A stretch of 64,000 bases of DNA from a virus (taxonomy: Duplodnaviria; Heunggongvirae; Uroviricota; Caudoviricetes), in the IMG/VR virus record IMGVR_UViG_3300026549_000033, positions 1 to 64,000 of that record; one strand, written 5' to 3'. Below the pieces are notes generated by a model, which was not told the DNA's origin, searched no databases, and was given only the letters and a program-made list of their open reading frames with translations. Positions 2,470 to 62,256 of the stretch are shown here, piece after piece. Both the position numbers and the translations under genes were made by a program. Each line of letters starts with the position of its first letter. Within the stretch, counting starts at the first letter, position 1.

Positions 2470-2682
2470 ATGGTATTTAATTGTTTTAACTGTGGGGCTC
2501 CGCTTCCAATAAATTCTGTGAAGTGCAAGGAGTGCGGTTTTACCCCCGATATAGAATTTATGAGAAAATGTCCTAATTTAAAAGTAGCTACTTGTGTTCT
2601 TACGGGAAAGTTTTGTAATAACAAAGGAGCTTATCAAACTTGTCCTATAAAAAATAAAGCTGATTCTGAATGCGGGTATTAA
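2470..2682 (+). CDS. Small zinc-ribbon protein, 70 aa.
   Basis: Paired CxxC motifs (CFNCG ... CKECG ... C...C). Translationally coupled to both neighbours. Confidence 0.55.
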   Translation: MVFNCFNCGAPLPINSVKCKECGFTPDIEFMRKCPNLKVATCVLTGKFCNNKGAYQTCPIKNKADSECGY

Positions 2683-3740
2683 ATTCTAAATTTATGAAGA
2701 CTTTTAAAAATGAATTAAATCCTAAATTATATAATGGCGAAGAATTAAAGCCTGAAGTTTTAAAGAAGCTTAAAGAAATAGCTGAGGCTTTTATAGATTT
2801 TCTTGAAATTCCGAAAACCGCCGTAAAAGATATTGTTATAACAGGTTCCTGCGCTTCTTATAATTACACGAAGCATTCAGACATAGATTTACACGTAATT
2901 GTGGATCCTAATAAAGTTCATGAAGACTGCCCGATAGTAGGACCTTACCTCCTTTCTAAGAAATCTGAGTTTAATCAGAAGCATGATATTTATATTTATG
3001 GGGTTCCTGTAGAAGTTTATACAGAGTTAGAAGGACAGGGAACTATACATAATGGACTATACTCCTTAAACAATGGATGGATAGACTTTCCTAAGAAGAT
3101 ACCTCCTTTAAAAAATAGTGCAGCAGTAAAGGCTAAATACAATGAATATGTGGAAGCTGCCAAAGAAATTAAAGAGGGTGATTTAGCTGAAAAGCTTTTA
3201 GATAAAATTAAACGCATGAGAAAAGCAGGATTAGAAGAAGGCGGGGAGTTTTCTGTAGAGAATTTAGTATTCAAGAAATTAAGAGATAACGGTTTTATTG
3301 GTAAGCTTATGAAAATTAAAAAAGAAAAAGTGGATAAAGATCTTTCTTTAGAAGAAACTTATGAAGACTTAATAATGTCTATAGAAGAAATGATATGTAC
3401 TTCTACAGCAGTTATGGCTCCGTACCCTGTGAATGTAATAGGTAAACCTGTTACTTTCACAAAAATTAAAGGGGATAAAAAGGGGCACGGAGAAAAGAGA
3501 GCTCCTCATACAGAAACAGTAATTAAAGAAGAGTATGAAAAACAAAGTAAAGGAAACGAAAAATCTGCTATGTATAAATTTAGTTATAAGAAAAATGGAA
3601 AACTTCGTAAAGTAATGGAGAATATCGCAGAAGTTTGTGAAGCCATAATTTCTTTTGAAAATAAGATTAAGGCTCCTCAGTCAACTTTAGAAGAAAGTAA
3701 AAGTAACGGGATAGCTTACTTCTATAATAAAGTTAATTAA
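2670..3740 (+). CDS. Polymerase-beta-superfamily nucleotidyltransferase, 356 aa, with a Lys/Glu-rich C-terminal extension.
   Basis: VITGSCASYNYTKHSDIDLHVIV matches hG[GS]-x9-13-Dh[DE]h. A further acidic residue lies downstream (KHDIYIYG). Overlaps the upstream ORF by 13 nt. Confidence 0.6.
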   Translation: MRVLNSKFMKTFKNELNPKLYNGEELKPEVLKKLKEIAEAFIDFLEIPKTAVKDIVITGSCASYNYTKHSDIDLHVIVDPNKVHEDCPIVGPYLLSKKSEFNQKHDIYIYGVPVEVYTELEGQGTIHNGLYSLNNGWIDFPKKIPPLKNSAAVKAKYNEYVEAAKEIKEGDLAEKLLDKIKRMRKAGLEEGGEFSVENLVFKKLRDNGFIGKLMKIKKEKVDKDLSLEETYEDLIMSIEEMICTSTAVMAPYPVNVIGKPVTFTKIKGDKKGHGEKRAPHTETVIKEEYEKQSKGNEKSAMYKFSYKKNGKLRKVMENIAEVCEAIISFENKIKAPQSTLEESKSNGIAYFYNKVN

Positions 3741-5196: not shown

Positions 5197-6045
5197 ATGG
5201 CTATATTTCAAAAGAAAAATAAAACGCTACAACCGATAGATTGGCCTCCGATAGCAGACGGGGAAGCAGCAAGTCCCGTGGTGGCTAATGCTGCTAATAA
5301 TTACACTTTACAAGGTGGAATTACCTATTCTCCTGAAACTACAAAAGTTTTTGAGTTAGGTATTTCGAAGTCTACCCAAGCTGAGTCTCCTCAAATTAAT
5401 GACGGAATATGGCTTATGGATATCGCGCAGAGCCATCACTATACAGTTCAGATTAGTAATATGGAGGGGATGTCGAGTTTGAAAACTCCAAAAGGGTCTT
5501 TCTCAGAGTTCCTTCCTGTTAAAACAATGAATTTAAAATATACAAGTTACGAGAATATGAGTATTCCTGTGGCAATATTTGGAGACTTTCCACTTTTAAA
5601 TAAAAAGAGAGTTAGTACTATAGACTTATCTTGCTACGACTTTGATAATAATAAATTAGAGTATGAACTTCGTAGATGGGAGGCTCAGTGTTTCCCTAAA
5701 GGAAGATATGTAGCTTATATGGACGACATAGCCCGTGAATTTATATATCGTGGGTATAGCGTGGATGGAAGAAAAACTTTAGAATACAGGGTTTTTGTAA
5801 TTCCTTCGGGAAATGTCACAGTCTCAAGAGATTACAGTGCTAACGAAGCTAAAATGCTAAATTTCAGTTTAGTTGTAGTTGGTGACGGAAGAACCTGTGC
5901 TCACGGCGAAGGAAAGACCCCTGGAATTATAGTAGAAGACCACGGTGGAGCGGGCGACGGAAGATATCCTAAGGGTGGCTTTGCTACTTTGTACGTTTCA
6001 GGTTATGGAAAGTGGAATCCAAAGACAGAACGTTTCGAAGTTTAA
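5197..6045 (+). CDS. Putative major tail protein, 282 aa.
   Basis: Positional. Downstream of a terminator (possible read-through attenuator) and upstream of a chaperone-like gene and the tape measure gene. Confidence 0.35.
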   Translation: MAIFQKKNKTLQPIDWPPIADGEAASPVVANAANNYTLQGGITYSPETTKVFELGISKSTQAESPQINDGIWLMDIAQSHHYTVQISNMEGMSSLKTPKGSFSEFLPVKTMNLKYTSYENMSIPVAIFGDFPLLNKKRVSTIDLSCYDFDNNKLEYELRRWEAQCFPKGRYVAYMDDIAREFIYRGYSVDGRKTLEYRVFVIPSGNVTVSRDYSANEAKMLNFSLVVVGDGRTCAHGEGKTPGIIVEDHGGAGDGRYPKGGFATLYVSGYGKWNPKTERFEV

Positions 6046-7158: not shown

Positions 7159-9450
7159 ATGTCAAAAAGTTCTAATGACGATATAAATGTAGCTTACCTT
7201 GAGAAACTTGCAGACGCGGTATCAGACGCTGCTATGTCTATGCAAAAAATAAGTGAGAGTTATGGTTCTAATGGTCAGTTAGAGCAGACTTTACGTAGTC
7301 TTGCAAAATCTGTAAATGACGGAACCATGACCACAAAGCAACTCCTTAGAGAAGCAGCTAATACTCAAAAGAACATGAGAAGTGTGGAGTACGGCTTAGA
7401 GAGCACCACAAAATATAATAAGACTGTAAATATGTTTATTAAGCTTATGGAGGAAAGACTTAAAAATTCTAAGCTTGATGAAGTACTTATTAAAAAGTTA
7501 ACTACAGCCTTTGAAAATTTAGATGTAACAGCTATCCTTGAATCTGAAAAAATAGGGCAAAGAGGTGGAAAAGGGGCTCCTCTTAAAAATGTCATGGATA
7601 ATGAAAAATTAGGTAAAGTTAATGAGGATTTAGCTAGAAGGATAGGAGTTCGATACGATAATGCTCAATATAAGTTAATAAACTTCTTTCAAAATGTAGG
7701 GCAAAATATCAAAAAAGGAGTAGTAAACTTCGGGAGAGACTTAATTGAAGGTCTCGAGAAGTCTAGATGGGTAGGTGGAGCTCTTAGAGATACTTTCCGT
7801 TTAATAGGTTTACTTGGAGCTAATTGGCTTCAACAGTTTGGAAAATTAGGAAAAATCTTAGGGGGAGCTTTCTATGTAGCTATGGAGTTAGCAGGACCTA
7901 CTTTAGTTAAACTTCTATTACAAGGGATGGGGAAACTCCTCTTAAAGATTCCTTCATTAATAGGTAGATTTGGTTGGGGTAATGCGGCAGGTGTAGCTAT
8001 TGGAGCTGCCGGAGCTATGTGGGCTTTTGATGAAGCAAAAGATTCTGAAAGAAGAGGACGTAAAGGAAACGCAGCCGCTTTTAGGACAGGCGGAGTTGCA
8101 ATGGGGGCAGGGGCTGCTGCTTTAGGAGTTACAGGATTAGCTACTTTAGGTGCAAGTGCAGCAGGAGCTATGGGAGCTACAGGACTTGCAGGGGTGCTAT
8201 CGGGTATTGCTGCTGCTTTAGGACCTATTGGATGGACTTTATTAGCAATAGGTGGAGCTGTTGCGGGTATTGCAGTCTTATGGAAAAACCACAGCGAAAC
8301 TATTAAAAAGTGGGCAGGTAAATTTATGACTTTTGTAAATAAAGTCATAGACTTTATGGCAATGTTTAACCCTATTTTTAAAGCAATTCAATGGATTAGA
8401 GATAATTGGCCTTTTGGAGAAAAAGGAACTGGGGGCTCAATTGGGGGAAATAACCCTAATAAAGGTACGGGTATTGCTGACTCTATTATAGATAACAAAA
8501 AAGGAAATTATGTTACCTATGGGAAAATGAAAGTTTCCAAAAGAGACGGTTCTATACTCAATTTAAGTGAGCTCTCTCAAGATGAAGCTTCGGCGGCTTT
8601 ACAAGCTTATGAAAAAGCGGATCCAACTTCTTTTAACAGAGTTTATGAATGGGTAGCAGGCGACAAAGCTAGCTTACAGTCACACTCTACGGACGCTGTA
8701 AAAAAAGTTAATGGTAAAGTAGTTGCAGCACTTAGTAAAAAAGGGACGTCTCAAGAAGTTGAGGATCTACGGAACATGCTTATGAGTATGGGGATGTCTA
8801 AACAGAAAGCTTCCGAGTTTGTTCAAACTTCAGGTAAACTCACAGGAAGTAACACTCAACACTCTGTGGGAGGATGGAAGTCACATAATAATCAGTATGG
8901 TCTTGGTATAGACTTAGCAGGAGGACAATCGTGGACAGGTCAAGATTATCTTAATAATTACGAAGCGATTAAACAATTCTATCGTGCTAGGGGGTTTGAA
9001 GTGGCCTTAGAAAGACCTGGACAAGGTAAAAGTACTGGGTGGCACTATGACATTAAACCTGCTTCAAATTTCAGACCTACAGGAGCTATGGAAAACTTTA
9101 GTGAGTATGAGTCTCAACAGAAAGCTGTAGCTGAGCAACGTTCAATAGCACTTAAGAGCGTAGCTGAATTTGCAGACGCAGCCGAAGTAAAACGCATAAA
9201 AGAGCAAAGAGCTATGCCTATGACGGAAAGAGGTTATTCTGTTAACCTTGATGAAATGAATTTAACGGACGCAGATTACCGAGCAATCTTGAAGAAACAT
9301 GGTATTTATGAAGATAAGAGTACAAATACTTGGATGAGAGAAACAGACAAGGGTATAGAATCTTTATGGTATGATAACGCGGGTAATATGCAATGGCGCT
9401 TGATTTTAAGTACAATGCAGGGGGCTTCACAAGGGTCTACAGGAAGGTAA
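7159..9450 (+). CDS. Tail tape measure protein with a C-terminal peptidase M15 (VanY-like) domain, 763 aa.
   Basis: Gly/Ala-rich hydrophobic repeat core (GAAGAMWAF ... GATGLAGVLSGIAAALGPIGW). C-terminal SHNNQYGLGIDLAG ... GWHYD resembles the SxHxxGxAxD ... WH zinc-peptidase signature. Confidence 0.7.
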   Translation: MSKSSNDDINVAYLEKLADAVSDAAMSMQKISESYGSNGQLEQTLRSLAKSVNDGTMTTKQLLREAANTQKNMRSVEYGLESTTKYNKTVNMFIKLMEERLKNSKLDEVLIKKLTTAFENLDVTAILESEKIGQRGGKGAPLKNVMDNEKLGKVNEDLARRIGVRYDNAQYKLINFFQNVGQNIKKGVVNFGRDLIEGLEKSRWVGGALRDTFRLIGLLGANWLQQFGKLGKILGGAFYVAMELAGPTLVKLLLQGMGKLLLKIPSLIGRFGWGNAAGVAIGAAGAMWAFDEAKDSERRGRKGNAAAFRTGGVAMGAGAAALGVTGLATLGASAAGAMGATGLAGVLSGIAAALGPIGWTLLAIGGAVAGIAVLWKNHSETIKKWAGKFMTFVNKVIDFMAMFNPIFKAIQWIRDNWPFGEKGTGGSIGGNNPNKGTGIADSIIDNKKGNYVTYGKMKVSKRDGSILNLSELSQDEASAALQAYEKADPTSFNRVYEWVAGDKASLQSHSTDAVKKVNGKVVAALSKKGTSQEVEDLRNMLMSMGMSKQKASEFVQTSGKLTGSNTQHSVGGWKSHNNQYGLGIDLAGGQSWTGQDYLNNYEAIKQFYRARGFEVALERPGQGKSTGWHYDIKPASNFRPTGAMENFSEYESQQKAVAEQRSIALKSVAEFADAAEVKRIKEQRAMPMTERGYSVNLDEMNLTDADYRAILKKHGIYEDKSTNTWMRETDKGIESLWYDNAGNMQWRLILSTMQGASQGSTGR

Positions 9451-9453
9451 TAT

Positions 9454-10320
9454 ATGGCAAAATTATTCTTAGATGGTATATTTAATTCAGATAGTAATTC
9501 TCCAAGTACAATTACTATAAGTGTCCCTGTAGCTACAGGTACTTCTTTTATTACTAAGAGCGGGAGTATTTTAAGAGGGTTAATAATAGGAGACCCAACA
9601 TGGTCTGCTTCAAATAAATGGGGTCCAATTATTAATGACCTCTCAAATTTACAGGATTGGGCTTCGTTATTAGGAGAGAATAATCAATTTTCTTGGATTA
9701 ACGCTTCGACTATGTGTTGGAAGGGTACAGCTCCCTTAGCCATTTCAGTAGAATTTTATTTAATAAATTATGCACGTGGTAAGAGTGCTGAACTTAAAAG
9801 GAATTTAAGTAATTTTGTTAAATTAGCGGCTGTCGCAAAATCAGAAAATAATTCTAACTTCAGAGTTCAAGTACATGGTGGCTATGCTCCTGACGTATTA
9901 AGTGGAAATAAAAAGTTTTTCAGTAGTTTTGGAGACATGAAGTCCTTTTTTAACGATAGTAGTAATAGTAGTCAATTAGATTCAACTATAGCAGATATGT
10001 ATGAGGGCTCTGTTGCTAAAGGTTCATTAAGTATTCGTTTTGGTCATAAATCAACGATAAGTAACTTATTACTTTCAAAAGTAAATGTTACAGAGAGCAC
10101 TGTTGAGGTTGCAGGACAAAACGGGGAAAACCCACAACCTTTGTATTATCGTGTTAGTGCCCAATTCACAGGAGTTCAACCTCTCGTAACTACTGAAATT
10201 GACGGTATGTTTGGTTTTTCAAGTTCATCTGATAGTAGTACTGCTCAAGTTGTGACAAAAACCACTGACGCTACAATTGTAGGTGAAGGTGGCGGTAGCG
10301 GCGGTGGAAGTAGCTGGTAA
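9454..10320 (+). CDS. Tail/baseplate structural protein (distal tail-like), 288 aa, Gly-rich C-terminus.
   Basis: Directly follows the tape measure gene. Ends GEGGGSGGGSSW. Confidence 0.4.
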   Translation: MAKLFLDGIFNSDSNSPSTITISVPVATGTSFITKSGSILRGLIIGDPTWSASNKWGPIINDLSNLQDWASLLGENNQFSWINASTMCWKGTAPLAISVEFYLINYARGKSAELKRNLSNFVKLAAVAKSENNSNFRVQVHGGYAPDVLSGNKKFFSSFGDMKSFFNDSSNSSQLDSTIADMYEGSVAKGSLSIRFGHKSTISNLLLSKVNVTESTVEVAGQNGENPQPLYYRVSAQFTGVQPLVTTEIDGMFGFSSSSDSSTAQVVTKTTDATIVGEGGGSGGGSSW

Positions 10321-19921: not shown

Positions 19922-20591
19922 TTATCAAGGTTGGACAGGTAATAAGAATTCAACTTATACCTGTCTAGGAGCTTCAAATCATTCAAAAGAAGAAAGAGAA
20001 GTGCATGACTACTATGCGACGGACCCTATAGCTGCAGAATATCTATTGAAGATTGAACCGCAAATAACTAATGTATGGGAAATGTGCGTAGGAGAGGGTA
20101 ACTTAGCAGAACCTTATCGTAGAGAAGGTAAATTAAAAGCAATATCTGACCTTATTGATAGAGGGTACTATCCTGAGGGTATAATGACTTCTTATGGTAA
20201 AGATTTCCTGCAAATGAGTAAAGTATGGAAAGGGGATATGGTAAGTAATCCTCCGTATAGCATAGCTGTTGAATGGACTAAGCATTGTTTAGACTTATTA
20301 CAAGACGGACATTATTTAGCTCTTTTTATGAAGATTACTTTCTTAGAAGGGAAAGAGCGCAGAAAGTTCTTTGAAGATAACCCTCCAATTAGAGTTTGGG
20401 TTAGCTCTTCAAGAATTCAATGTGCCAAAAATAACGAATTTGAAGTTCCTAAGAAAGATAAAAATGGAAATGTTGTATATGACAAGACAGGAAACCCTAT
20501 AATGGTTAAGATGTCTTCTGCAGCATGCTACTGCTGGTATATATGGCAGAAAGGTTATAAAGGACCAACGGAACTGAAGTGGTTCAATTAA
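19911..20591 (+). CDS. Orphan DNA N6-adenine (NPPY-type) methyltransferase, phage Dam-like, 226 aa.
   Basis: MVSNPPYS motif IV. Upstream Gly-rich EMCVGEGN. No adjacent endonuclease. Confidence 0.65.
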   Translation: MENNYQGWTGNKNSTYTCLGASNHSKEEREVHDYYATDPIAAEYLLKIEPQITNVWEMCVGEGNLAEPYRREGKLKAISDLIDRGYYPEGIMTSYGKDFLQMSKVWKGDMVSNPPYSIAVEWTKHCLDLLQDGHYLALFMKITFLEGKERRKFFEDNPPIRVWVSSSRIQCAKNNEFEVPKKDKNGNVVYDKTGNPIMVKMSSAACYCWYIWQKGYKGPTELKWFN

Positions 20592-20645
20592 TTTTACAAA
20601 TTTTGTAATTTGTGATATTATTAAAATATAGAAAGGGACAGAGTA

Positions 20646-21206: not shown

Positions 21207-21999
21207 GCTCATACAAATAACACAAAATCCAATAGATGTAATGTGGACAGCGGCAAGAACCTGTTATTCAGAAAAGTCCCCTATTGAAATGTGGGAAGAC
21301 AGGTATGGGGCTACTTCAGACGATTGTGAACATACTCAAGAGTGGACAGAACAGTGTGTAGAGAAGCATTGGAATCTTGTTAAAAAAGTATTGGATAGTG
21401 GACATCAATCAATTGCAGAACATGTTTATTTTACATTTGCCATTGAAGGTATAAGTAGAGCATGTTCACACCAATTAGTAAGACATAGGGCAGGTATTGT
21501 ATTTTCTCAACAATCCCAAAGGTATGTAGAAATAAAAGAGTCATTACAAGAGCTCAGGGATATAAGAGAACACTGTGGGGTTGCTAAAACTGCTGGGACT
21601 GTAGAGAAATATTTTGTTCCAAATCAAGATGGAATGTCGGGTTTAAAATATGCCGAATTAGATTGTCTTATAGAATATAGGAGACTTATAGAAGAAGAAA
21701 GTATGGCACCAGAAGATGCTAGAGCAATTCTTCCAAATGCAACAAAAACAAATATTACAATGTCTATAAATTATAGGGAGCTAATTCATATTTGTAATTT
21801 AAGATTATGTACAAGAGCTCAAAAAGAAATAAGAGATCTATTCAACTTTATTGTAAAAGAAGTTGAAAAAGAAGACGAAAGATTAGTAAAATACCTCGTC
21901 CCGCAGTGTGAGGTGCTTGGGGTTTGTACTGAGCACCAATGCTGCGGTCGTAAACCGAAGTTAAAAGAAATAATGGAAGTTTATAAAAGAGAAAAGTAA
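21187..21999 (+). CDS. thyX: Flavin-dependent thymidylate synthase ThyX.
   Basis: SHQLVRHRAGIVFSQQSQRY matches the ThyX RHR-x7-S signature. Confidence 0.8.
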   Translation: MKSMKVKLIQITQNPIDVMWTAARTCYSEKSPIEMWEDRYGATSDDCEHTQEWTEQCVEKHWNLVKKVLDSGHQSIAEHVYFTFAIEGISRACSHQLVRHRAGIVFSQQSQRYVEIKESLQELRDIREHCGVAKTAGTVEKYFVPNQDGMSGLKYAELDCLIEYRRLIEEESMAPEDARAILPNATKTNITMSINYRELIHICNLRLCTRAQKEIRDLFNFIVKEVEKEDERLVKYLVPQCEVLGVCTEHQCCGRKPKLKEIMEVYKREK

Positions 22000-22023
22000 C
22001 TTTATTAAAGAAGGAGAAAAAAC

Positions 22024-23559
22024 ATGAATTTCATTCCACACTTATCCCCAATTTTAATTGTTGCGGGTGTATCATTTTTAGCAGTCTCATTATTCATTAA
22101 ATGGGTGTTGAGCCTGCGTGTAGTAGTACCTACGTCAGAAGTACACGTAGTACAAAGAGCTGGAGAAACTATCCTCTACGGAAAGGCAGCTCAAACAAAA
22201 GATAATAAAACAGGAAATGCTTATTATGCTTTTCCGTCTTGGCTACCTGTTATTGGAATTACAAAAACTGTTTTAGGAACAGGAATTTTTGACAGAGACC
22301 TTAAAGACTATGAAGCTTATGATAAGGATCGTTTACCTTTCATGGTTGACGTAAAAACATTTTTTAGAATTAAAGATTTTGATGCAGCTTCTATTCGTGT
22401 AACAAGCATGAAAGAGTTAGAAGAACAGTTAGACGGTATTGTTCAAGGGGCTGTTCGTTCGTTACTTGCTAAAGAAGACCTTGAATCTATAATGTCTGAA
22501 AGAAATAAATATGGTAAGCAGTTTACAGAAGAAGTTGCTCCTCAGTTAGAACAATGGGGTGTAGAAACTGTAAAGAATGTTGAATTAATGGATATTAGAG
22601 ACTCAAGAGATTCCAAAGTTATTCAAAATATAATGGCTAAAAAGAAATCTCAAATTGAAATGGAAAGTCGTACAACTGTTGCTGAAAATACTAAAAAAGC
22701 AAGTCAGGCTGAAATAGAATCTCAGAAAGAAATTGCTCTTAAACAACAGGACGCTGAAAGAGAAGTTGGATTAAGAAAAGCTCAAGTAGCTCAAGAGGTT
22801 GGTATAGCTGACGAAAAACAAAAGCAAGAAGTTCAAGCACAGGCTAAAGTAACTGCTGAAAAAGAAATGGAAGTTCAAAGAGTGCGTGAAGTGCAAACTG
22901 CTGAAATTGAAAAACAAGCAGCCACAGTCAGAGCTGAACAAGATAAAGCTGTTATTGAAGTTAATGCTAAGGCAGCAGTAACTAAAGCGGACGCTGACAA
23001 AAACGTTAGAATTCTTAATGCTGAAGCAAGTCAACAACAGACTATCCTTGAGGCAGAAGCAACGAAGCAACAGATTGAATTAAGAGCAGATGCTGACCTT
23101 AAAGTTGCTACAAACACTGCTAAAGGTATTGAGGCAAAAGGTAAGGCTCAGGCAGAAGCAGATAAATTGAGTAAGATAGCCTCAGTTCAAGACCAAGTAA
23201 CTTTAGCAAAAGAAGTTGGTGAAAATAAACCTTATCAAGAATTCTTAATTGCTCAAAAGCAGATTGAAGTACAAGGTAGCGTAATGAAAGAAGTAGGTGT
23301 CGCTCAAGCTCAGAATTTGGGTAATGCAGACATTAAAATGTTCGTTAATTCAGGGTCAGTTCCTGAAGGAGTAGGTAAGGCTGCAAGTATATTTAATCCT
23401 GATACAGCTATGAATGTAGCGTCTATGCTTGAAGCTTTCAAATCAACTCCTATGGGAGCAGAAATAGTTGATAAGCTACTTGGTACGGGTAACGTTGTTA
23501 AAACTGTAGAGACAATTGAACAAGTTAAGACAGCTGTGAATAAACATAAAGATAAGTAA
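22024..23559 (+). CDS. SPFH/band-7 (flotillin-like) membrane protein with a long coiled coil, 511 aa.
   Basis: N-terminal TM, SPFH-like region, then an extended EA/Q-rich coiled coil (AEREVGLRKAQVAQEVG ...). Confidence 0.6.
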   Translation: MNFIPHLSPILIVAGVSFLAVSLFIKWVLSLRVVVPTSEVHVVQRAGETILYGKAAQTKDNKTGNAYYAFPSWLPVIGITKTVLGTGIFDRDLKDYEAYDKDRLPFMVDVKTFFRIKDFDAASIRVTSMKELEEQLDGIVQGAVRSLLAKEDLESIMSERNKYGKQFTEEVAPQLEQWGVETVKNVELMDIRDSRDSKVIQNIMAKKKSQIEMESRTTVAENTKKASQAEIESQKEIALKQQDAEREVGLRKAQVAQEVGIADEKQKQEVQAQAKVTAEKEMEVQRVREVQTAEIEKQAATVRAEQDKAVIEVNAKAAVTKADADKNVRILNAEASQQQTILEAEATKQQIELRADADLKVATNTAKGIEAKGKAQAEADKLSKIASVQDQVTLAKEVGENKPYQEFLIAQKQIEVQGSVMKEVGVAQAQNLGNADIKMFVNSGSVPEGVGKAASIFNPDTAMNVASMLEAFKSTPMGAEIVDKLLGTGNVVKTVETIEQVKTAVNKHKDK

Positions 23560-23585
23560 ATTTAGCGTATTTTTGAATTCCATGT

Positions 23586-23617
23586 TCCCTACTCAAAAGG
23601 TAGGGAATTTTTTTTTA
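23586..23617 (+). terminator. Rho-independent terminator (ccctac-tcaaaag-gtaggg plus a T9 run).
   Basis: Perfect 6-bp stem followed by aatttttttttt. Confidence 0.8.
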
Positions 23618-23622
23618 TAAAA

Positions 23623-23651
23623 TTTGCATATTTTTTAATTTATGCTATAAT
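23623..23651 (+). promoter_or_regulatory. Promoter TTTGCA-N17-TATAAT.
   Basis: aaaatttgca ... tataat with 17-nt spacing, upstream of prs. Confidence 0.55.
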
Positions 23652-23680
23652 GAAATTATAAAAAGGGAAGGCATGAAAAT

Positions 23681-24658
23681 ATGAGAGTAGACAGTGTGGC
23701 AGCTTCTTCCCCTCAAGTAAATTTCAAAGGAAGAAATATTATGGGAAGAGAAGCAATCAGATTAATACCTTCGTCAATGAGAACACCTCTTGAAGAAAGT
23801 ATAGCAAAATTAATGGAGATGGTTCCAACTCCAACAGTAGTAAAAAAATTTGCTAATGGAGAAACTTATGTAAACATTATGGGAGACATGAGAAATAAAG
23901 ACGTATTCCTCATGCCTACTATTGGAAGAGCAGTAAATGACAACCTTATGGAGACTTATCTTAAAGCCGACGCAGCTAAAAGAATGGGGGCCAATCGTGT
24001 TGTAGCAGTTATGCCAAACTTTCCGTATGGAAGGCAGGAGCGTAAAACTCAATTTGGTGAACCTATCTCTGCAAGGTTGAACCTATCTTTGTTGCATGCT
24101 TCAGGAGTTGACGAAGTTATTTCTACAGACATTCACGCAGCAGCTCTTCAGGGGTTTGCTCGTCAAATGAAATTAACAGATCTAAGCTCTTTAGAAGAAA
24201 TGACAGCTTACTTTAAGGGTAAAGTAAACTTTAAACCCGAGAATTTAGTAGTAGTCTCCCCTGATTTAGGAGGAGTAAAAAGAGCAGATAAATTTGCTAA
24301 AGAACTTGGCTGTGAAAAAGCAATTATTTATAAAAATAGAACAGGGCATAATCAGGCAGTAGCGGAATCCTTATTAGGCGACGTAGAAGGTAAGGATTGT
24401 ATTATTTATGATGATATTATAGATACTGCAGGGACAATAACAGAAGCTGCAAGAATGCTAAAAGAAAACGGAGCAAATAAAATTTATATTGCGGCTTCTC
24501 ATGGATTGTTCAACGGCCCCGCTTTAGAAAGGTTAGAAAAGGCTCCTATTGAGGAAGTAGTAGTTACAAATTCAGAGTTAAAACCTGCTTTAGATAAAAT
24601 TAAGCAAGTAGATATAGCTCCTAAAATTGTGGGTACTATTTTAGATATTTCAGGTTAG
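23681..24658 (+). CDS. prs: Ribose-phosphate pyrophosphokinase (PRPP synthetase family).
   Basis: KKFANGETYVNI, NDNLMETYLKADAAKR, VMPNFPYGRQERK, VVVSPDLGGVKRA and CIIYDDIIDTAGT (PRPP-binding motif). The likely true start is the ATG at 23741 (MGREAIRL), which has a better RBS. Confidence 0.8.
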   Translation: MRVDSVAASSPQVNFKGRNIMGREAIRLIPSSMRTPLEESIAKLMEMVPTPTVVKKFANGETYVNIMGDMRNKDVFLMPTIGRAVNDNLMETYLKADAAKRMGANRVVAVMPNFPYGRQERKTQFGEPISARLNLSLLHASGVDEVISTDIHAAALQGFARQMKLTDLSSLEEMTAYFKGKVNFKPENLVVVSPDLGGVKRADKFAKELGCEKAIIYKNRTGHNQAVAESLLGDVEGKDCIIYDDIIDTAGTITEAARMLKENGANKIYIAASHGLFNGPALERLEKAPIEEVVVTNSELKPALDKIKQVDIAPKIVGTILDISG

Positions 24659-24664
24659 GAGGAC

Positions 24665-24892
24665 GTGATGAGTACTCTTATTGATAACTTAATTGATTTA
24701 AGAACTTGCAATCAAGAATTTAATGGAGCATGGTATATAGCCAAACCTTATGAATTCTTTGGGTTTGCTACTTTTATACGTAGATTAAAAGACGCTTGGA
24801 GAGTTTTGACAGGAAAATCAAGGGCTTACCATTTTTATGAAGATACTTTAAAGAAAAGACCTAAAGTTATACATATGATAGAAGGAGAGTAA
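24665..24892 (+). CDS. Hypothetical protein, 75 aa.
   Basis: ORF. Confidence 0.45.
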   Translation: MMSTLIDNLIDLRTCNQEFNGAWYIAKPYEFFGFATFIRRLKDAWRVLTGKSRAYHFYEDTLKKRPKVIHMIEGE

Positions 24893-24898
24893 AGAAGT

Positions 24899-25372
24899 AT
24901 GAGCTGCTTATTAGACCACGCAAGGAATGAATTAAAATTAGCTGGGTACAATATTGATACCCCAGATAAGAATAGCTTTGAATCTGACGAAGATTATGGA
25001 AATGCATGCGCCAAAAATGCTTATGAAATGTTAAAAGTATTTTCTTCGGCAGATCATTCAGGGTTTTCAGCAGGAGCCACACTTGCTTTATTTAATAAAT
25101 TAGCAGAATTTAAGTGCCTGACTCCTTTAACCAATAATCCTGACGAATGGATGGATACTTCGGAGTTCCAAGGAGAACCTGTAGGAACGCATTTTCAGTC
25201 AAAAAGACAGAGCTCTTGCTTTTCAGACGACGGATTAAAAACTTACTATGATATAGATGAAAAAGCAAATAAAGAGTATGACCTCGATGAAAAAGGGAAA
25301 AGAACAGGTTGGGTTCATATGAAACCCCGTGAAGAGTGGGTTCACCATAAATTAGAGGATTATAAAAAATGA
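24899..25372 (+). CDS. Hypothetical protein, 157 aa.
   Basis: ORF. Its stop overlaps the first copy of the 41-bp repeat (aaaATGA). Confidence 0.5.
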   Translation: MSCLLDHARNELKLAGYNIDTPDKNSFESDEDYGNACAKNAYEMLKVFSSADHSGFSAGATLALFNKLAEFKCLTPLTNNPDEWMDTSEFQGEPVGTHFQSKRQSSCFSDDGLKTYYDIDEKANKEYDLDEKGKRTGWVHMKPREEWVHHKLEDYKK

Positions 25373-25406
25373 GAAGGAGCGGAGGGTACAGAATAATGAA
25401 AAATGA
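25366..25406 (+). repeat. 41-bp direct repeat, copy 1 (aaaatgagaaggagcggagggtacagaataatgaaaaatga). A truncated duplicate of the start of the gene at 28389.
   Basis: Identical to 28386-28426. The copy here encodes MRRSGGYRIMKN and then diverges to a stop after 21 codons. Confidence 0.9.
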
Positions 25407-25567
25407 GGTTACTATGTTGGTTAGGCTATCATGATTATGAATATAACAAAGATAGAACCAAAAGATGGTGTAAGCACTGCGGTAAGTGTCAAGAGAGGTG
25501 CCTGCTTGATTTATTTTGGGCAACGTGTGTTGACGGAGAACCAATAGAAGACCCGCAACCACAGTAA
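25403..25567 (+). CDS. Small Cys-rich (zinc-ribbon-like) ORF, 54 aa, inside the inserted segment.
   Basis: ATG at 25403. CKHCGKCQERC ... C pattern. Not in the ORF track. Weak RBS. Confidence 0.3.
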   Translation: MRLLCWLGYHDYEYNKDRTKRWCKHCGKCQERCLLDLFWATCVDGEPIEDPQPQ

Positions 25568-25662
25568 CCTTGTAATTACTTTTGAATTGTGGTAATATAA
25601 AAGTAATTATGTAGGTAGCCAATAGACTGGAATGTTGAAGCTACTTAGAAAGGAAAGAGAAA

Positions 25663-28386
25663 ATGAGATATTTATTTGTATTAAGAGGGGCACCCGCCTC
25701 AGGTAAGAGTACATGGATTAAAGAAAATGAATTAGAACCATATACATTAAGTACAGATAGTTTAAGATTAATGTATCAATCTCCTGTAACAACTGCAGAA
25801 GGAGATAGAAAAATTTCCCAAAATAATGATAAGGAAGTTTGGAATTTACTTATGGAGCTTCTTGAAAGAAGAATGGAAAATGGTGAGTTAGTTGTTATAG
25901 ACGCTACTCATTATAAATCTTCCCTTATAAATAGATATAAAGACCTTGTATCAAAATATAGATATAGAGTTTATGTTGTAGATTTTTCTAATGTATCAGA
26001 AGAAGAATTAAAAAGAAGAAATGCTACAAGAGGATTTAGAAAAGTTCCAGATGAAGTAATTGAGAAAATGGTTGTAGCCTTAGCGGATACTAATGAAGTT
26101 AAAAAACAATATAAAATAGTATCTCCTGAAGAAGCAATTACATTAATAAATTCTCCCTTAGAGCCATTTGACGTAAATGAATATGAAAAAGTTGTAATCT
26201 TTGGGGATATACATGGTTGTTATGACCCATTAAAAGAATATTTTGATAAGAATCCATTTAATGAAAATTACAATTATATTTTCTGTGGAGATTATTTAGA
26301 TAGGGGATTACAAAATAAGGAAGTTTTGGAATTTTTAATTTCTTTAAAAGATAAAAAGAATTGTGTATTCTTAGAAGGTAATCATGAGAAATGGTTGAGA
26401 ATATATTCTCAAAAAGATTATGATATGGATTACTACGAGAATAGACCTGTTGAGTATAAAGACCCATTTGTTACTAAATTAATTGCTCAATTAAAAGACA
26501 AACAAGTTATTTTAGAGAAAAAGATAAATAAGAATAAAAATATGTCTGAGGAATTGTCTAAGCTATTAAGGGAATCTTGGGAAACAAATCCTGAGAACAG
26601 AGAAGTATTTTATAGATTTGAAAAAATAAATGTTCCTGAAAAACAAAAGGAATTACATAAAGAAATACAAGAATGTGAATACAGGTTAGAAAAACTAATT
26701 AGATTAATTACTGTGCTGCAGCATGAAGAGCACAATACGAAAGATTTTATACAAAATTGTAGAGAATGGTTTAAAGAAGAGTTCTCTACGGATTTATCTT
26801 TAGATATTACAAACATTTTAGAAAAGAATTATAATGTGGAATCTAAAAGAAAACAAAATCCAATTCGTTCTTTAGAATTTATAAAAAGAACATATCCACA
26901 AATCAAAGATATTGATAAAACAGAAATAAGAAGATTCTGCGATAGATTAGCACAAATGAGTTATTTTACATTTAATGGACATGATTATTTGGTAACTCAT
27001 GGTGGTGTACCATGTATGCCTACAATGAAAACACAAACAATAGAATTAATTAAAGGTGTAGGTAAATATGAAGACCATGATAAAATAGATAAACAATTTA
27101 ATGAAAATGAAGAAAAGAATAAAACATGGACAGTCCAAATACACGGTCATAGAAATGTAATGAGAGTTCCTGTTGTATCAAATGAGAACATGACATTCAA
27201 TTTAGAAGGTCAAGTAGAGTTTGGTGGACACTTAAGAATTGTAGAACTTGGAGATTTTCCTGAAGGACATTGGAATATTGTAGAAATTAAGAACGAGACT
27301 TATGATATTCCAGAAGTAAAAGAGGAAGAAGAAAAATCTGACATAGAACTGCTTAGAGAAATGTATGATAGTAAATGGGTACAGGTTAAAAACTTAAAAG
27401 ATAATGTAATAAGTTTTAACTTTACAAGAGACGCTTTTGAAAAAGGAAAGTGGGATACAATAACAACAAAAGCAAGAGGTTTGTTTATAGATAAAACAGA
27501 CGGGCACGTTGTAGGAAGAAGTTTTGATAAATTCTTTAACTATAGACAACATGAAACAACAGAACCTGCTTATATGAAGGAACATATTAAGTGGCCTTTA
27601 ATTGGATATAAAAAAGAAAATGGATTCTTGGGTATTGTATCTAAAGATAAAAATGGAGTACATTTCTTTACTAAATCTTCTGATGAAGGTGACTATGTAA
27701 ATTGGTTTATAGGTGTACTATGTGATAATTATGGAATAACTTATATATCCAATAGTAGATATTCAGATATTTATAACAAATTAGTTAATGAAAGAGATGA
27801 AATAGATAAGGTTAATCGTAGAACTGAATTAAATATTTTAAAAACAGAATTAACTAATAAATTATCACCATTATTAGCGGAAGGGTGTTCCTATGTATTT
27901 GAATGTATAGATAAAGATAATGACCCACATATTATAAAATATGATAGTAATAAGGTAATCTTGTTAGAAATCTTTGATAATCAACTAAAAGAAAAACACT
28001 ACAATTATGAGGATTTAAAAACAATAGGGCAGGCTTTAAATGTTCCTGTTAAAGAAAAAGCACTTGTATTTAATAACTGGGAAGAATTTGAAGAATGGAA
28101 AGATAAATTCAGACAAGGATTATCTCAATGGGATTGTAAGCATGAAGGATATGTATTTGAAGACCAAAATGGATATAGGGTTAAGTTTAAATCTTCATTC
28201 TATAATTTTTGGAAACAAATGAGAGCTTTAAAAGACGTTATGGCAGGCGGAAGAACAAACAAGAAAGTTTATAAAACTAAAGAAGAAATACAGGTTGTAA
28301 AACTCATGGAAGAATTAGGTAGAGATAGGCTTAAAGAAATGTCTATTATTGATGTAGAAGATATGTTTTATGAAAGGTATAAGTAA
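25663..28386 (+). CDS. pnkp: Trifunctional polynucleotide kinase-phosphatase-ligase (Pnkp-type RNA repair enzyme), 907 aa.
   Basis: N-terminal P-loop kinase similar to T4 Pnk (RGAPASGKSTW ... RRNATRGFRKVPDEVIEKM). Central calcineurin-type phosphoesterase (GDIHGCYD, GDYLDRG, GNHEKW). C-terminal domain with a lysine-nucleotidyltransferase-like KENG motif (YKKENGFLG). Confidence 0.7.
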   Translation: MRYLFVLRGAPASGKSTWIKENELEPYTLSTDSLRLMYQSPVTTAEGDRKISQNNDKEVWNLLMELLERRMENGELVVIDATHYKSSLINRYKDLVSKYRYRVYVVDFSNVSEEELKRRNATRGFRKVPDEVIEKMVVALADTNEVKKQYKIVSPEEAITLINSPLEPFDVNEYEKVVIFGDIHGCYDPLKEYFDKNPFNENYNYIFCGDYLDRGLQNKEVLEFLISLKDKKNCVFLEGNHEKWLRIYSQKDYDMDYYENRPVEYKDPFVTKLIAQLKDKQVILEKKINKNKNMSEELSKLLRESWETNPENREVFYRFEKINVPEKQKELHKEIQECEYRLEKLIRLITVLQHEEHNTKDFIQNCREWFKEEFSTDLSLDITNILEKNYNVESKRKQNPIRSLEFIKRTYPQIKDIDKTEIRRFCDRLAQMSYFTFNGHDYLVTHGGVPCMPTMKTQTIELIKGVGKYEDHDKIDKQFNENEEKNKTWTVQIHGHRNVMRVPVVSNENMTFNLEGQVEFGGHLRIVELGDFPEGHWNIVEIKNETYDIPEVKEEEEKSDIELLREMYDSKWVQVKNLKDNVISFNFTRDAFEKGKWDTITTKARGLFIDKTDGHVVGRSFDKFFNYRQHETTEPAYMKEHIKWPLIGYKKENGFLGIVSKDKNGVHFFTKSSDEGDYVNWFIGVLCDNYGITYISNSRYSDIYNKLVNERDEIDKVNRRTELNILKTELTNKLSPLLAEGCSYVFECIDKDNDPHIIKYDSNKVILLEIFDNQLKEKHYNYEDLKTIGQALNVPVKEKALVFNNWEEFEEWKDKFRQGLSQWDCKHEGYVFEDQNGYRVKFKSSFYNFWKQMRALKDVMAGGRTNKKVYKTKEEIQVVKLMEELGRDRLKEMSIIDVEDMFYERYK

Positions 28387-28426
28387 AAATGAGAAGGAGC
28401 GGAGGGTACAGAATAATGAAAAATGA
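28386..28426 (+). repeat. 41-bp direct repeat, copy 2. The intact start of the downstream gene.
   Basis: Identical to 25366-25406. Confidence 0.9.
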
Positions 28427-28643
28427 CTCGCATACAAAAATAAGAATTGAAACGGACTTTGATTTTAACGAGAAAGTTATTATAAAGCCTCTAAAAATAG
28501 AGGGTACTATAGAAAGCTTTTGGTTAAACAAAGCCAAAGAACTCAAAGTAGAAGTTAGATATTTTCTTAATAATGAGATAAAACTTGATTATTTCTACTG
28601 TGATGAGTTGGAGGTTTTGAAAGAATCTAAGACAGGGGTTTAG
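28389..28643 (+). CDS. Hypothetical protein, 84 aa. Its first 12 codons are duplicated at 25369.
   Basis: ORF whose start lies within the repeat. Confidence 0.5.
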   Translation: MRRSGGYRIMKNDSHTKIRIETDFDFNEKVIIKPLKIEGTIESFWLNKAKELKVEVRYFLNNEIKLDYFYCDELEVLKESKTGV

Positions 28644-41440: not shown

Positions 41441-42361
41441 ATGAATAAATTTAAAAAAAGTGGAGTATATTGCATAAAGAACTTAAAAAATGGTAAGGTA
41501 TATGTAGGAAGCTCAAAGAATTTAGAGCACCGAAGAACTGAGCATTTTAATTCTCTGTTAAAAGGAAACCATCATTGTTCTCATCTACAGAAATCTTATA
41601 ATAAGTATGGATTAAAGTACTTTATATTTTGTGTAATAGAATATGTAGAAGGTAAAAATAAGTTAGAACAACAGGAATTAAGATGGTTTCATTATTATAA
41701 TGTAGGTAATCATAGCAAGTGTTATAACACATGCTTTTATGTAGGTTCACCAAGAGGAATAAGGCATTCTGAGGAAACCAAGAGAAAGTTGAGTGCTGCT
41801 CGAAAAGGTAAAAAATTTACAGAGGAGCATAAAAGACATTTAAGTGAAAGTAATAAAGGACAAAAAAGGACAGAAGAGCAAAGAAAACATCTAAGAGAAG
41901 CAATTTTAAAAAGAGGATTTACTGATGCTCAAAGGTGTGCTTTGAAGAAACGAAATGACACTTATAAAAAAGGGTACAATCCTAACGCCAAAAAAGTAAT
42001 TTGCGTCGAAACAATGGAAGTTTTTGAAACATTAAATGAGGCGTTAGAGTTTAGTAAGGGTAAAGATCGGGCTGCTTTAAGCCGTAGCTGTAAGAATAGA
42101 ATCCCTTATAGAGGAAAGCACTACCTATTCTTAAAAGATTTTCGTAAATTGACTCACATAGAACTGGAAAAACTTTTGTTAGTAAAATCTAAGTGGAGTA
42201 TTCATGTCCATACTCATATTAAGTGCATTGAGGATGAAAAAGAGTTTAGAAGCATAAGTGATGCTTCTAAATATTACCATGTAAGTCGGGACACAATTAG
42301 TAAATACTTAAAGTTAAAAAAGACAATCCCGAAACAAAACTTAACTTTTATAAAATTATAA
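41441..42361 (+). mobile_element. Free-standing GIY-YIG homing endonuclease with NUMOD3 repeats.
   Basis: GVYCIKNLKNGKVYVGSSKNLEHRRTEH (GIY-YIG motif). Three repeats of xHSEETKRKLS / HKRHLSESNKG / QRKHLREA (NUMOD3-like). C-terminal DNA-binding region. Confidence 0.75.
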
Positions 42362-54328: not shown

Positions 54329-54331
54329 AAT

Positions 54332-54360
54332 TTGACAAGATTTAGCATGCGTGATATTAT
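54332..54360 (+). promoter_or_regulatory. Promoter TTGACA-N17-TATTAT.
   Basis: ttgaca at 54332-54337, a 17-nt spacer containing tagcatgc, tattat at 54355-54360. Confidence 0.55.
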
Positions 54361-54380
54361 GAAATAAGAGAGGGAAATAA

Positions 54381-61577: not shown

Positions 61578-62204
61578 ATGCTGCAGAACTTAATAGATTC
61601 TTTAGAATACACAATTAAGAGTAGCAAAAGCCTCTTAAATAAAGAAGAGATAATATCTGAAAGAAATGAAATTCTTAAAGAAGAACTTCAGAAAGAAAAG
61701 GAGTACCTTACTTTTATTAAAGGTGCCAAAGAAAAGTACCAAGTAGCAGTAAATGAACTCTATGAAGAAAGTGTAGTAGCTCTTCAGGATACATTGAATG
61801 CAGCACTGAAATATATCATGTATGACAAAAACTACAGTGCAAAACTTGTACTTGAAGACACAAGAGGTACCAAATCCTTATCTATAATTTTAGTAGACGA
61901 CGATGATAACTTCGAAGTTGACTTAAAAGACGGGGTAGGGCAAGGAGTAAGAACTATTATTTCCTTTGTGCTTAAGTCTTATTACTTATTAAATCAAAAC
62001 AGTAAAGTCTTATTTTTAGATGAAAAATATTCAGCTTTATCTGCTCACTATGTTCCGCGTTTCTATGAGTTTATAGAAAAATTCTGTGAAGACAACGACT
62101 TCATAATTGTTATGATTTCTCACATAGATAATCAAATTGAGCACGCTGATAAAGTTTATTATTTAAATGATGGTGTCATATCAGAAGAAACCACTAAAAT
62201 TTGA
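61578..62204 (+). CDS. Rad50/SbcC-like C-terminal ATPase lobe.
   Basis: LSIILVDDDDNF, VLFLDEKYSALS (Walker B / D-loop), VMISH (H-loop). Confidence 0.55.
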   Translation: MLQNLIDSLEYTIKSSKSLLNKEEIISERNEILKEELQKEKEYLTFIKGAKEKYQVAVNELYEESVVALQDTLNAALKYIMYDKNYSAKLVLEDTRGTKSLSIILVDDDDNFEVDLKDGVGQGVRTIISFVLKSYYLLNQNSKVLFLDEKYSALSAHYVPRFYEFIEKFCEDNDFIIVMISHIDNQIEHADKVYYLNDGVISEETTKI

Positions 62205-62229
62205 CAAGATTAGTTATCCATTATATAAT
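62201..62229 (+). promoter_or_regulatory. Promoter TTGACA-N17-TATAAT.
   Basis: ttgaca at 62201-62206, a 17-nt spacer, tataat at 62224-62229. Confidence 0.6.
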
Positions 62230-62256
62230 TAAGTAAGAGAGAAATGAGAGAGAAAA

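Follow-up and report, generated by a model that had tools for sequence, protein, structure and literature searches.

In phage T4, Pnk (PseT) and Rnl1 counter the anticodon nuclease PrrC; the kinase, 3'-phosphatase and Rnl1-type ligase activities of this pair jointly mend broken tRNA. Large phages carry sets of kinases, phosphoesterases and ATP-grasp ligases with which RNA cut by host effectors is mended (PMC7824862, review). The ligase of bacterial Pnkp forms a family of its own and is unable to seal without the N-domain of Hen1, which is encoded next door (PMC3675462). Fungal and plant Trl1 are single-chain trifunctional heal-and-seal enzymes (ligase, kinase, cyclic phosphodiesterase), and a passage in PMC6379707 describes the Trl1 ligase as needing a 2'-phosphate at the junction. 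With regard to gene gain, T4-type phages show modular shuffling mediated by PeSL (promoter plus stem-loop) cassettes, in which recombination at short sequences close to gene ends adds, removes or replaces single accessory genes of hyperplastic regions (PMC2839356). Phage mosaicism in general has been traced to illegitimate or homeologous recombination (PMC2327257). Here we describe a locus in the first 64,000 nucleotides of IMG/VR record IMGVR_UViG_3300026549_000033 (Caudoviricetes), a stretch that we call the window, in which the gene for a predicted trifunctional RNA repair protein of 907 aa lies between two identical copies of a direct repeat.

We propose that this protein is a single-chain heal-and-seal RNA repair enzyme and that the repeat is the scar of one unequal crossover between related phage genomes, a joint reading to which we assign a probability of roughly 0.7. 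Coordinates are positions within the 64-kb window, and all listed features are on the + strand.

Anatomy of the repeat-flanked locus

The repeat and the genes that it touches are as follows.

24899..25372, +: left neighbour, a gene of the Tad3 family (157 aa) whose product is predicted to inhibit ThsB, the TIR protein of Thoeris
25365..25406, +: R1, upstream repeat copy; Tad3 stop and first 12.7 codons of gene 84
25369..25434, +: remnant open reading frame (ORF) of 21 codons, MRRSGGYRIMKNEVTMLVRLS and stop; duplicated gene-84 5' end running out of frame into ORF54 sequence
25403..25567, +: ORF54, 54 aa; small Cys/His-rich protein (CWLGYH...WCKHCGKC...C), function unassigned
25663..28386, +: 907-aa trifunctional protein, predicted 5'-OH kinase, 2',3'-phosphoesterase and ATP-dependent RNA ligase (Pfam, PHROG, motifs, AlphaFold2, Foldseek); its gene is referred to below as the Pnkp-like gene
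28385..28426, +: R2, downstream repeat copy; functional 5' end of gene 84
28389..28643, +: gene 84, 84 aa; right neighbour

The repeat, AAAAATGAGAAGGAGCGGAGGGTACAGAATAATGAAAAATGA, is 42 nt long and 100% identical between R1 and R2, whose starts lie 3,020 bp apart. An earlier note on this DNA had rightly described it as exact and flanking, but its length of 41 bp falls one base short on the left. Only these two copies occur in the window when up to three mismatches are allowed, and the repeat is the sole long exact dispersed repeat of the window; no such 42-nt repeat appeared in 100 dinucleotide-preserving shuffles. The 3,020-bp unit comprises ORF54, a 95-nt leader and the 907-aa ORF. The coordinates of the 157-aa (24899-25372), 54-aa (25403-25567) and 907-aa (25663-28386) ORFs, and the 256-bp interval between R1 and the last of these (25407-25662), are those reported previously.

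The stop codon of the Tad3 gene (TGA, 25370-25372) falls within R1 and overlaps an ATG at 25369, from which the remnant ORF of 21 codons begins with the N-terminus of gene 84. R1 is therefore a truncated duplicate at the stop of its left neighbour, as the earlier note had it, and the remnant is probably a non-functional by-product. The same note placed the start of gene 84 at 28389, which is backed by variation in codons 1-9 (MRRSGGYRI) that is mostly synonymous (synonymous to non-synonymous changes 4:1 among relatives), and by a relative (L016) with its own Shine-Dalgarno (SD) sequence ahead of the corresponding ATG. Gene callers choose 28416 instead, a start that we rejected on these two grounds. 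Gene 84 is conserved beside either Tad3 or the Pnkp-like gene in relatives, and it has no match to a Pfam or PHROG family.

ORF54, which the earlier note had recognised as a Cys-rich ORF in the same segment, is called as a 53-aa gene in three relatives (L011, L024 and L025), and its codon differences are biased towards synonymous changes (8-10 against 2-4 non-synonymous), indicating a real, conserved gene. Its PHROG matches are weak only (phrog_15926, E=1.6e-4). Scans for sigma-70 promoters and terminators around the cassette gave nothing above the shuffled expectation.

The repeat-flanked arrangement is real and not an assembly chimera. Three independent assemblies, two from JGI and one (megahit) from ENA, read through both repeat copies and agree at 99.8% across 10 kb; the source contig measures 195 kb. 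Logan contigs of other runs, assembled with k=31, end within the repeat, which is no surprise at a repeat length of 42 nt, yet contain the junction between repeat and ORF54. Megablast found no near-identical DNA in cultured phages, and no instance of the 42-nt repeat sequence was found in IMG/VR viral contigs. A metagenome scan with gene 84 recovered two short loci only, one of which (L017) shows an ATGA overlap between the Pnkp-like gene and gene 84.

Parental arrangements and the proposed crossover

Relatives of the locus show two arrangements: in the A-type, Tad3 stands directly before gene 84, and in the B-type, ORF54, the Pnkp-like gene and gene 84 follow one another without Tad3. Three A-type relatives identified via Tad3 homologues (L018, L019 and L020) have the order Band_7-Prs-g77-Tad3-gene84-g100-g111, and two of them, L018 and L019, have Tad3 ending and gene 84 starting within one ATGA (…AAAAAATGAGAAGG…). 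L018 aligns with the window at 96.6% over 21752-25404 and resumes at 28385 (94.2%), so that it has one repeat copy and lacks exactly the 3,020-bp unit. This is the empty site that the earlier note had anticipated; in no relative did we see the duplication without an inserted gene.

The closest relatives of the Pnkp-like protein are encoded by the B-types L024 and L025 (90% and 87% protein identity), in the order Thy1-Prs-g74-g120-g72-g66-ORF54-Pnkp-gene84-g100-g111-g116. Both have the window's spacings from ORF54 to the Pnkp-like gene and from there to gene 84, lack Tad3 and hold a single repeat copy; L024 has two extra genes between ORF54 and the Pnkp-like gene. Across the junction of the Pnkp-like gene's end with gene 84, the window and L024 are identical over 120 nt (100%). 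In the B-types, ORF54 is preceded by …GAGGGTTGAAAAATGAGG…, and its start context, GGTTGAAAAATGAGG, is the source of a microhomology: the last 10 nt of the repeat (TGAAAAATGA) are common to gene 84 and to the native context of ORF54.

The two kinds of homology meet at this point. Homology to the A-type L018 ends at 25404, and homology to the B-types L011, L024 and L025 begins at 25397, which delimits the following interval.

25397..25406, +: proposed crossover interval, microhomology TGAAAAATGA; common to codons 10-13 of gene 84 and, in B-types, to the native 5' context of ORF54

To the left, Band_7, Prs and g74 are 97.9, 97.1 and 96.0% identical to L018, whereas the corresponding values for L024 are 93.0% (Prs) and 86.0% (g74), with no match to Band_7. 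To the right, R2 and the rest of gene 84 are 100 and 98.6% identical to L024 against 97.5 and 93.8% for L018. R1 is identical to the single copy in L024, and 39/40 positions agree with L018. Contigs of the window type, which come from six or more datasets, show 99.4-100% identity, whereas A-type contigs are mutually diverse (85-97%) with flanks 3-10% off the window, and B-type contigs are diverse as well. By this contrast, the recombinant looks like the young form.

We therefore hypothesise that one unequal, non-allelic crossover between two collinear, related phage genomes made the repeat. The A parent would have carried Prs-g74-Tad3-gene84 and the B parent Prs-g74-120-72-66-ORF54-Pnkp-gene84, and the exchange would have occurred where codons 10-13 of gene 84 and the ORF54 start region coincide, in a microhomology no longer than 10 nt. 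The recombinant would have received Tad3 and a 38-nt stub of gene 84 from A, and ORF54, the Pnkp-like gene, gene 84 and everything onward from B, with loss of B's g120-g72-g66. The outcome would be a duplicated gene-84 5' end and two accessory genes, Tad3 and the repair enzyme, stacked side by side. The repeat is best read as a by-product of this exchange rather than as a recognition site or the trace of a self-mobile element.

Domains and motifs of the repair protein

Pfam assigns AAA_33 to aa 4-137 of the 907-aa protein, Metallophos from aa 176 and RNA_lig_T4_1 to aa 603-847, giving the three catalytic modules in the order that had been claimed for them. Their extents and key residues are listed below.

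25663..26157, +: kinase domain, aa 1-165; P-loop G9-A-P-A-S-G-K15-S16, D32, R35, R119, R123
26170..27327, +: binuclear metallophosphoesterase domain, aa 170-555; GD182xH184G, GD210xxDR214G, GN240H241E, H446GG, H494xH496
26449..26850, +: subfamily-specific insertion in the phosphatase domain, aa 263-396 (~134 aa), between the GNHE and HGG motifs
27340..28383, +: RNA ligase domain, aa 560-907; motif I K651-E-N-G654, III F746-E747, IV E828-G-Y-V, V V840-K-F-K843

All catalytic motifs of the kinase, phosphatase and ligase are invariant in an alignment of 22 homologues reaching down to 43% identity. This includes the nucleotidyl-lysine motif of the ligase (K651-E-N-G), on which the earlier note had made its assignment depend, together with motifs III, IV and V. 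Domains were searched separately against the PDB; a whole-protein phmmer search is swamped by PP1/PP2A phosphatases. The best PDB match of the kinase domain is the Clostridium thermocellum Pnkp (CthPnkp) kinase (4GP6, E=1.2e-6), with T4 Pnk at E=0.004 (1LY1), and Foldseek superimposes it on the CthPnkp kinase with a TM-score (TM) of 0.76 and a root-mean-square deviation of 2.6-2.9 Å. The phosphatase scores 64.7 bits against Pfam Metallophos and is matched by Foldseek to the CthPnkp phosphatase (4J6O, E=9e-6).

The ligase domain has different affinities. It scores 98.1 bits against PF09511 (RNA_lig_T4_1; cutoff 28.3), covering the full 227-position model, and matches no other Pfam family even at E<=10. 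Searched against the PDB, a profile of 14 ligase sequences recovered Trl1 (9QW7, E=3.9e-18; 6N0V, E=1.5e-10) and T4 Rnl1 (2C5U, E=1.6e-8), and no Pnkp ligase at E<=10; the profile was needed, as a search with the single ligase-domain sequence gave weak Trl1 matches only. An AlphaFold2 model built from the family alignment (mean predicted local distance difference test, pLDDT, 87.6) leads Foldseek to rank relatives as the sequence searches do: for the ligase, Trl1 6N0T (E=1.6e-12, TM 0.66) is followed by T4 Rnl1 9DO4/2C5U (E=2-3e-11, TM 0.50), and the top 50 matches contain no Pnkp ligase.

The equation of the protein with bacterial Pnkp in the earlier note is not borne out by these comparisons. 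NCBIfam TIGR04075, the equivalog model for bacterial Pnkp, gives 72.6 bits where its cutoff is 750, with an alignment confined to aa 4-245, and the ligase is of the Rnl1/Trl1 type. The protein resembles a Pnkp in uniting kinase, phosphatase and ligase on one chain, but it is no bacterial Pnkp: its healing half is of the Pnkp type and its sealing half of the Rnl1/Trl1 type. As had also been noted, Hen1 is not adjacent: precomputed Pfam assignments show no Hen1 or other methyltransferase within +/-8 kb, and there is none among the other 26 window ORFs scanned, a set that does not take in all distant ORFs below ~250 aa. With a ligase of this type, the lack of Hen1 is expected rather than odd, and there would presumably be no 2'-O-methyl 'immunisation' of the repaired junction.

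From the conserved active sites we infer a three-step repair reaction. The metallophosphoesterase would take off the 2',3'-phosphate, the P-loop kinase would phosphorylate the 5'-OH, and the Rnl1/Trl1-type ligase would reseal the break through Lys651-AMP with no need for a Hen1 partner. The insertion at aa 263-396 is missing from homologues of ~750 aa (P0115-P0119) and from cultured-phage homologues. AlphaFold2 gives it two helices (268-306 and 324-374) and two strands (314-317 and 320-323), mostly at pLDDT 82-92, and it is predicted to form a long antiparallel two-helix arm with a beta-hairpin tip that protrudes from the phosphatase domain. The arm matches no Pfam family, and a part in tRNA binding or oligomerisation is only a guess.

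The Pnkp-like ORF is low in G+C (26-30% vs 33-38%). We considered this as a sign of recent foreign origin and rejected it, because several related phages carry the gene too, at 83-92% DNA identity, which makes low G+C a property of the gene family and not of the recombination event.

Relatives of the repair protein

The 907-aa protein matches phrog_8238 ('RNA ligase', 737 positions) over its full length (E=6.8e-187, 623.9 bits), in two stretches split by the insertion, the better of which aligns aa 389-904 with profile positions 241-731. Tblastn finds three-domain proteins at 35-39% identity over ~80% of the query in 130 phage records, among them phages of Staphylococcus (Herelleviridae), Bacillus (SPbeta-like), Lactobacillus, Fusobacterium and Brochothrix. 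Their annotations are inconsistent, ranging over RNA ligase, polynucleotide kinase, phosphatase and hypothetical protein. The best cultured-phage relative reaches 39.5% identity, and there is no close one. The ~900-aa form is frequent in metagenomes, where it makes up 100 clusters or more (45-90% identity) and the contigs that encode it reach 336 kb. Size varies within the family: six relatives of ~620 aa (P0057, P0081 and P0100-P0103) are without the ligase domain and consist of kinase and phosphatase only, and three others (P0076, P0088 and P0089) exceed 1,200 aa, being ~300 aa longer.

Leader hairpin and recurrent junction duplications

Two structured elements lie between ORF54 and the Pnkp-like gene.

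25573..25609, +: inverted repeat with 16-nt arms and a 5-nt loop, just 3' of ORF54
25612..25647, +: leader hairpin of the Pnkp-like gene, 9-bp stem and conserved loop AATAGACTGGAATGTTGA, 5-6 nt upstream of the SD GAAAGGAAAGAG

The inverted repeat lies within a stable fold of 25565-25668 (z = -3.9), and homology of the ORF54 block to L011 stops at its end (25609). The hairpin has an invariant 18-nt loop core and three or four compensatory versions of its stem. Covariation analysis found 97.6% of cells paired and 7/12 pairs changed on both sides, compared with 24-48% in slid controls. A covariance model placed the hairpin before every Pnkp homologue examined (including those of L014, L024 and L025), with extra copies in L011 (5950-5985 and 10005-10040) and L015 (5548-5585 and 5951-5985). 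No Rfam family matches it. The loop motif had three matches in IMG/VR, all of which we rejected as unrelated chance occurrences with no BLAST similarity to the window. The hairpin is a probable regulatory or stabilising element of the 5' untranslated region.

The hairpin travels with the Pnkp-like gene and is present as a single copy in the window. In L014 and L015, homology to the window is restricted to leader and Pnkp ORF (25609/25621 to 28383) within otherwise unrelated neighbourhoods, so the gene has been shuffled among phages; shuffling of pieces the size of a gene is clearly common here. Relatives also carry duplicated junction segments of 42-74 nt at 79-95% identity. In L011, the 65-nt 3' end of the Pnkp-like gene stands on both sides of a 108-aa gene (8657-8721 / 9095-9159), a 74-nt duplicate surrounds a 135-aa gene (9511-9584 / 9918-9991), and a second copy of the Pnkp leader stands in front of gene 84 (5959-6000 / 10014-10055); in L015, the leader is found on both sides of a 115-aa gene (5540-5604 / 5943-6006). 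Duplicated junctions are thus a recurrent by-product of gene gain in this phage group and no one-off.

Genomic context and a possible counter-defence role

The left neighbour of the locus is assigned to Tad3 by Pfam PF25185 (108.3 bits, cutoff 27; E=2.7e-31). Tad3 to Tad6 are phage inhibitors that bind the Thoeris TIR protein ThsB (PMC13402655). In relatives, Tad6 is encoded a few kb downstream. The window's Tad3 (24899-25364) is only 90-91% identical to those of L018-L020, though Band_7, Prs and g74 are 96-98% identical to L018, which suggests that the anti-Thoeris gene has evolved faster or was exchanged separately. Just upstream of Tad3 are a Band_7/HflC-like gene of 511 aa (22024-23559) and a gene for a Prs-like ribose-phosphate pyrophosphokinase (23681-24658), whose fold also occurs in NAD+-reconstitution enzymes of phages. 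In Staphylococcus phage Twillingate, an HflC-like gene likewise stands two genes away from the Pnkp-like gene.

The rest of the window encodes NrdD, GroEL, PolA, DNA ligase, DnaB, SHMT and Thy1, which by annotation are the replication and nucleotide-metabolism functions of a large lytic phage; no tRNA genes were detected in the window. The locus itself is thus part of the variable, accessory gene content and includes one or more recognisable anti-defence genes. This setting, with Tad3 next door, supports a counter-defence role without proving it, and we consider that the repair enzyme most likely acts, by analogy with known repair systems, against tRNA- or RNA-cleaving immunity.

Several other features of the window and its relatives were recorded. 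A 356-aa protein with a Pol-beta-type nucleotidyltransferase domain (2670-3740; NTP_transf_2, E=6.5e-7) could be an RNA-end repair partner (RlaP-like or CCA-adding-like) or unrelated. Homing-endonuclease genes are scattered: GIY-YIG/NUMOD at 41441-42361 of the window, GIY-YIG after a helicase gene in L024 (11089-12282), and in L025 an enlarged Thy1 gene (616 aa) that matches LAGLIDADG faintly (907-2757). Positions 1-147 of the window hold a tandem 21-nt coding repeat (42-nt super-unit), GTACAGAAAC(A/T)A(C/A)T(A/C)C(C/T)GAAG, presumably encoding repeats rich in Gly, Thr, Glu and Pro in a protein that the edge of the window truncates. Three intergenic promoter-like motifs (20587-20633, 54326-54372 and 62195-62241), of the form TTGACA-N17-TGATATTAT or TATATAAT and then AAGAGAG, are possibly early or middle phage promoters unrelated to the Pnkp leader.

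Alternative explanations

The repeat could have arisen by other routes. In one, a patch was inserted into an A-type genome, or a small circle with ORF54, the Pnkp-like gene and one repeat copy integrated in Campbell fashion, as a PeSL-like exchangeable cassette. The 100% identity of R1 and R2 would be expected if both came from one target, for g111 and g116 the A-type L018 is at least as close to the window as the B-type L024, leader and Pnkp-like gene recur in the unrelated contexts of L014 and L015, and mini-circles between nearby repeats are documented in T4-type phages (PMC2839356). We nonetheless regard this route as unlikely. A circle would need a donor with two repeats, and the window type itself was the only such arrangement seen; the B-type is the best match for the right junction (100%) and for the remainder of gene 84 (98.6%); and the left junction falls at the microhomology with the ORF54 context, which a single crossover explains directly and with no second event. 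It is very improbable that the repeat-flanked form is ancestral and that empty sites arose from it by homologous deletion between the 42-nt repeats. Recombination of R1 with R2 would delete exactly 3,020 bp and restore the Tad3-gene84 ATGA junction of L018-L020, but R1 is a truncated coding 5' end without function before ORF54, so the Tad3-gene84 junction must predate the duplication; the B-types have the identical right junction without R1, and it is the A-types that are diverse (85-97%; 3-10% off the window flanks) and the window types that are near-identical. Direct repeats bracketing a unit also recall the target-site duplication of a transposon, integrative element or homing-endonuclease cassette, and homing endonucleases do occur elsewhere (GIY-YIG gene 41441-42361; LAGLIDADG and GIY-YIG in relatives). 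A self-mobile element of this kind is highly implausible here, given that the unit holds ORF54 and a repair enzyme only, with no transposase, integrase or endonuclease and no terminal inverted repeats, that the right junction is already present in the B-types, and that 42 nt far exceeds the target-site duplications known to us. Of the mobile cassette described in the earlier note, the recombination scar therefore stands, whereas a unit moving by itself does not: it encodes no recombinase, and its right junction pre-exists in L024.

For the enzyme, the main role could lie outside tRNA repair, for example in phage mRNA ends, 2',3'-cyclic-phosphate second messengers, DNA ends, or a structural or moonlighting function such as that of T4 Rnl1. 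CthPnkp-type phosphatases act in vitro on non-nucleic phosphoesters and nucleotides (PMC3675462), a PHROG relative (phrog_562) is annotated 'RNA ligase and tail fiber protein attachment catalyst', some members have no ligase domain (P0057, P0081, P0100-P0103), and the window lacks tRNA genes. Strict co-conservation of three active sites in one polypeptide is the signature of coupled heal-and-seal repair, and the ligase is nearest to dedicated tRNA ligases, so that a main role outside tRNA repair seems unlikely. Our preferred combination of a heal-and-seal enzyme and a single unequal crossover has points against it as well. The true parents are absent from the data, the Tad3 of L018 being only 91% identical; an L018-like parent would reduce the microhomology to only ~4 nt, and complete identity of R1 and R2 demands parents near-identical at this place or a very recent event. 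In g111 and g116, which lie further to the right, the window is at least as near to L018 as to L024, and a double exchange (a patch into an A-type genome) or later recombination may have been involved. The role of the enzyme is drawn from analogy with bacterial Pnkp and with T4 Pnk/Rnl1 against PrrC, and we know of no biochemically characterised homologue in the phrog_8238 family. A bolder extension would combine three ideas: the repeats make ORF54 and the Pnkp-like gene a reversible module (pop-out, possibly a packageable mini-circle, and re-entry), the leader hairpin is a dedicated regulatory RNA (an enzyme-bound operator or a sensor of RNA damage), and the arm is a tRNA gripper that defines a distinct class. 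We consider this combination unlikely; if the module were reversible, it would imply presence/absence variation in phage populations and a vehicle for swapping counter-defence genes.

Comparison with known systems

Anti-defence genes cluster in fast-changing regions of phage genomes, but seldom can a single DNA event in the assembly of such a cluster be observed together with the two parents. In the present case, public metagenomes yield the recombinant as well as the two parental arrangements, and the crossover can be placed within 10 nt, where a single sloppy exchange would have stacked an anti-Thoeris gene and a putative tRNA-repair gene. The comparisons also correct a mis-annotation, in that Pnkp-like phage proteins appear to carry a self-sufficient Rnl1/Trl1-type ligase, with which they should need no Hen1 and leave the repair junction unmethylated. 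Phages of Staphylococcus, Bacillus, Lactobacillus and Fusobacterium widely carry members of the family, as do many large phages known from metagenomes. As more and more tRNA-cleaving defences are described, the family is a plausible candidate for a broad counter-measure against them.

Bacterial Pnkp shares with the window protein the order of kinase, binuclear metallophosphatase and ligase and the heal-and-seal logic (PMC3675462), and the CthPnkp kinase and phosphatase are its closest solved structures (4GP6; 4J6O). The two differ in the ligase, which is Hen1-dependent and Pnkp-specific in the bacterial enzyme and of the Rnl1/Trl1 type (PF09511) in the window. T4 Rnl1 is related to the window ligase in motifs and fold (2C5U, 1.6e-8; Foldseek, 2e-11), but T4 splits over Pnk and Rnl1 the activities that the window unites on one polypeptide, and its Pnk phosphatase is of the HAD/DxDxT type, whereas that of the window is a calcineurin-like metalloenzyme. 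The Trl1 ligase is the best sequence and structure match of the window ligase (9QW7, 3.9e-18; 6N0T, 1.6e-12, TM 0.66), in an enzyme with the opposite domain order and a 2H cyclic phosphodiesterase instead of a metallophosphatase. Among the closest known proteins are cultured-phage members of phrog_8238 such as Staphylococcus phage Twillingate gp176 ('polynucleotide kinase', 778 aa) and Bacillus phage SPbetaL2 gp148 (hypothetical, 732 aa), which have the same domains in the same order; to these forms the window protein and its ~900-aa metagenomic relatives add the ~134-aa arm and a shorter insertion in the ligase domain. Judged by sequence, the 907-aa protein is thus assigned to a known phage family, with a distinctive arm, and is not very novel.

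PeSL shuffling in T4-type phages resembles what is seen in L011 and L015, where a hairpin-bearing leader is duplicated on both sides of inserted genes. A PeSL is a pre-existing, dispersed regulatory cassette with multiple promoter and stem-loop copies around variable genes, whereas the window repeat is a coding 5' fragment made by the event itself, and the window has one leader copy. The locus is a clean, well-documented case of known evolutionary processes, not a new type of system.

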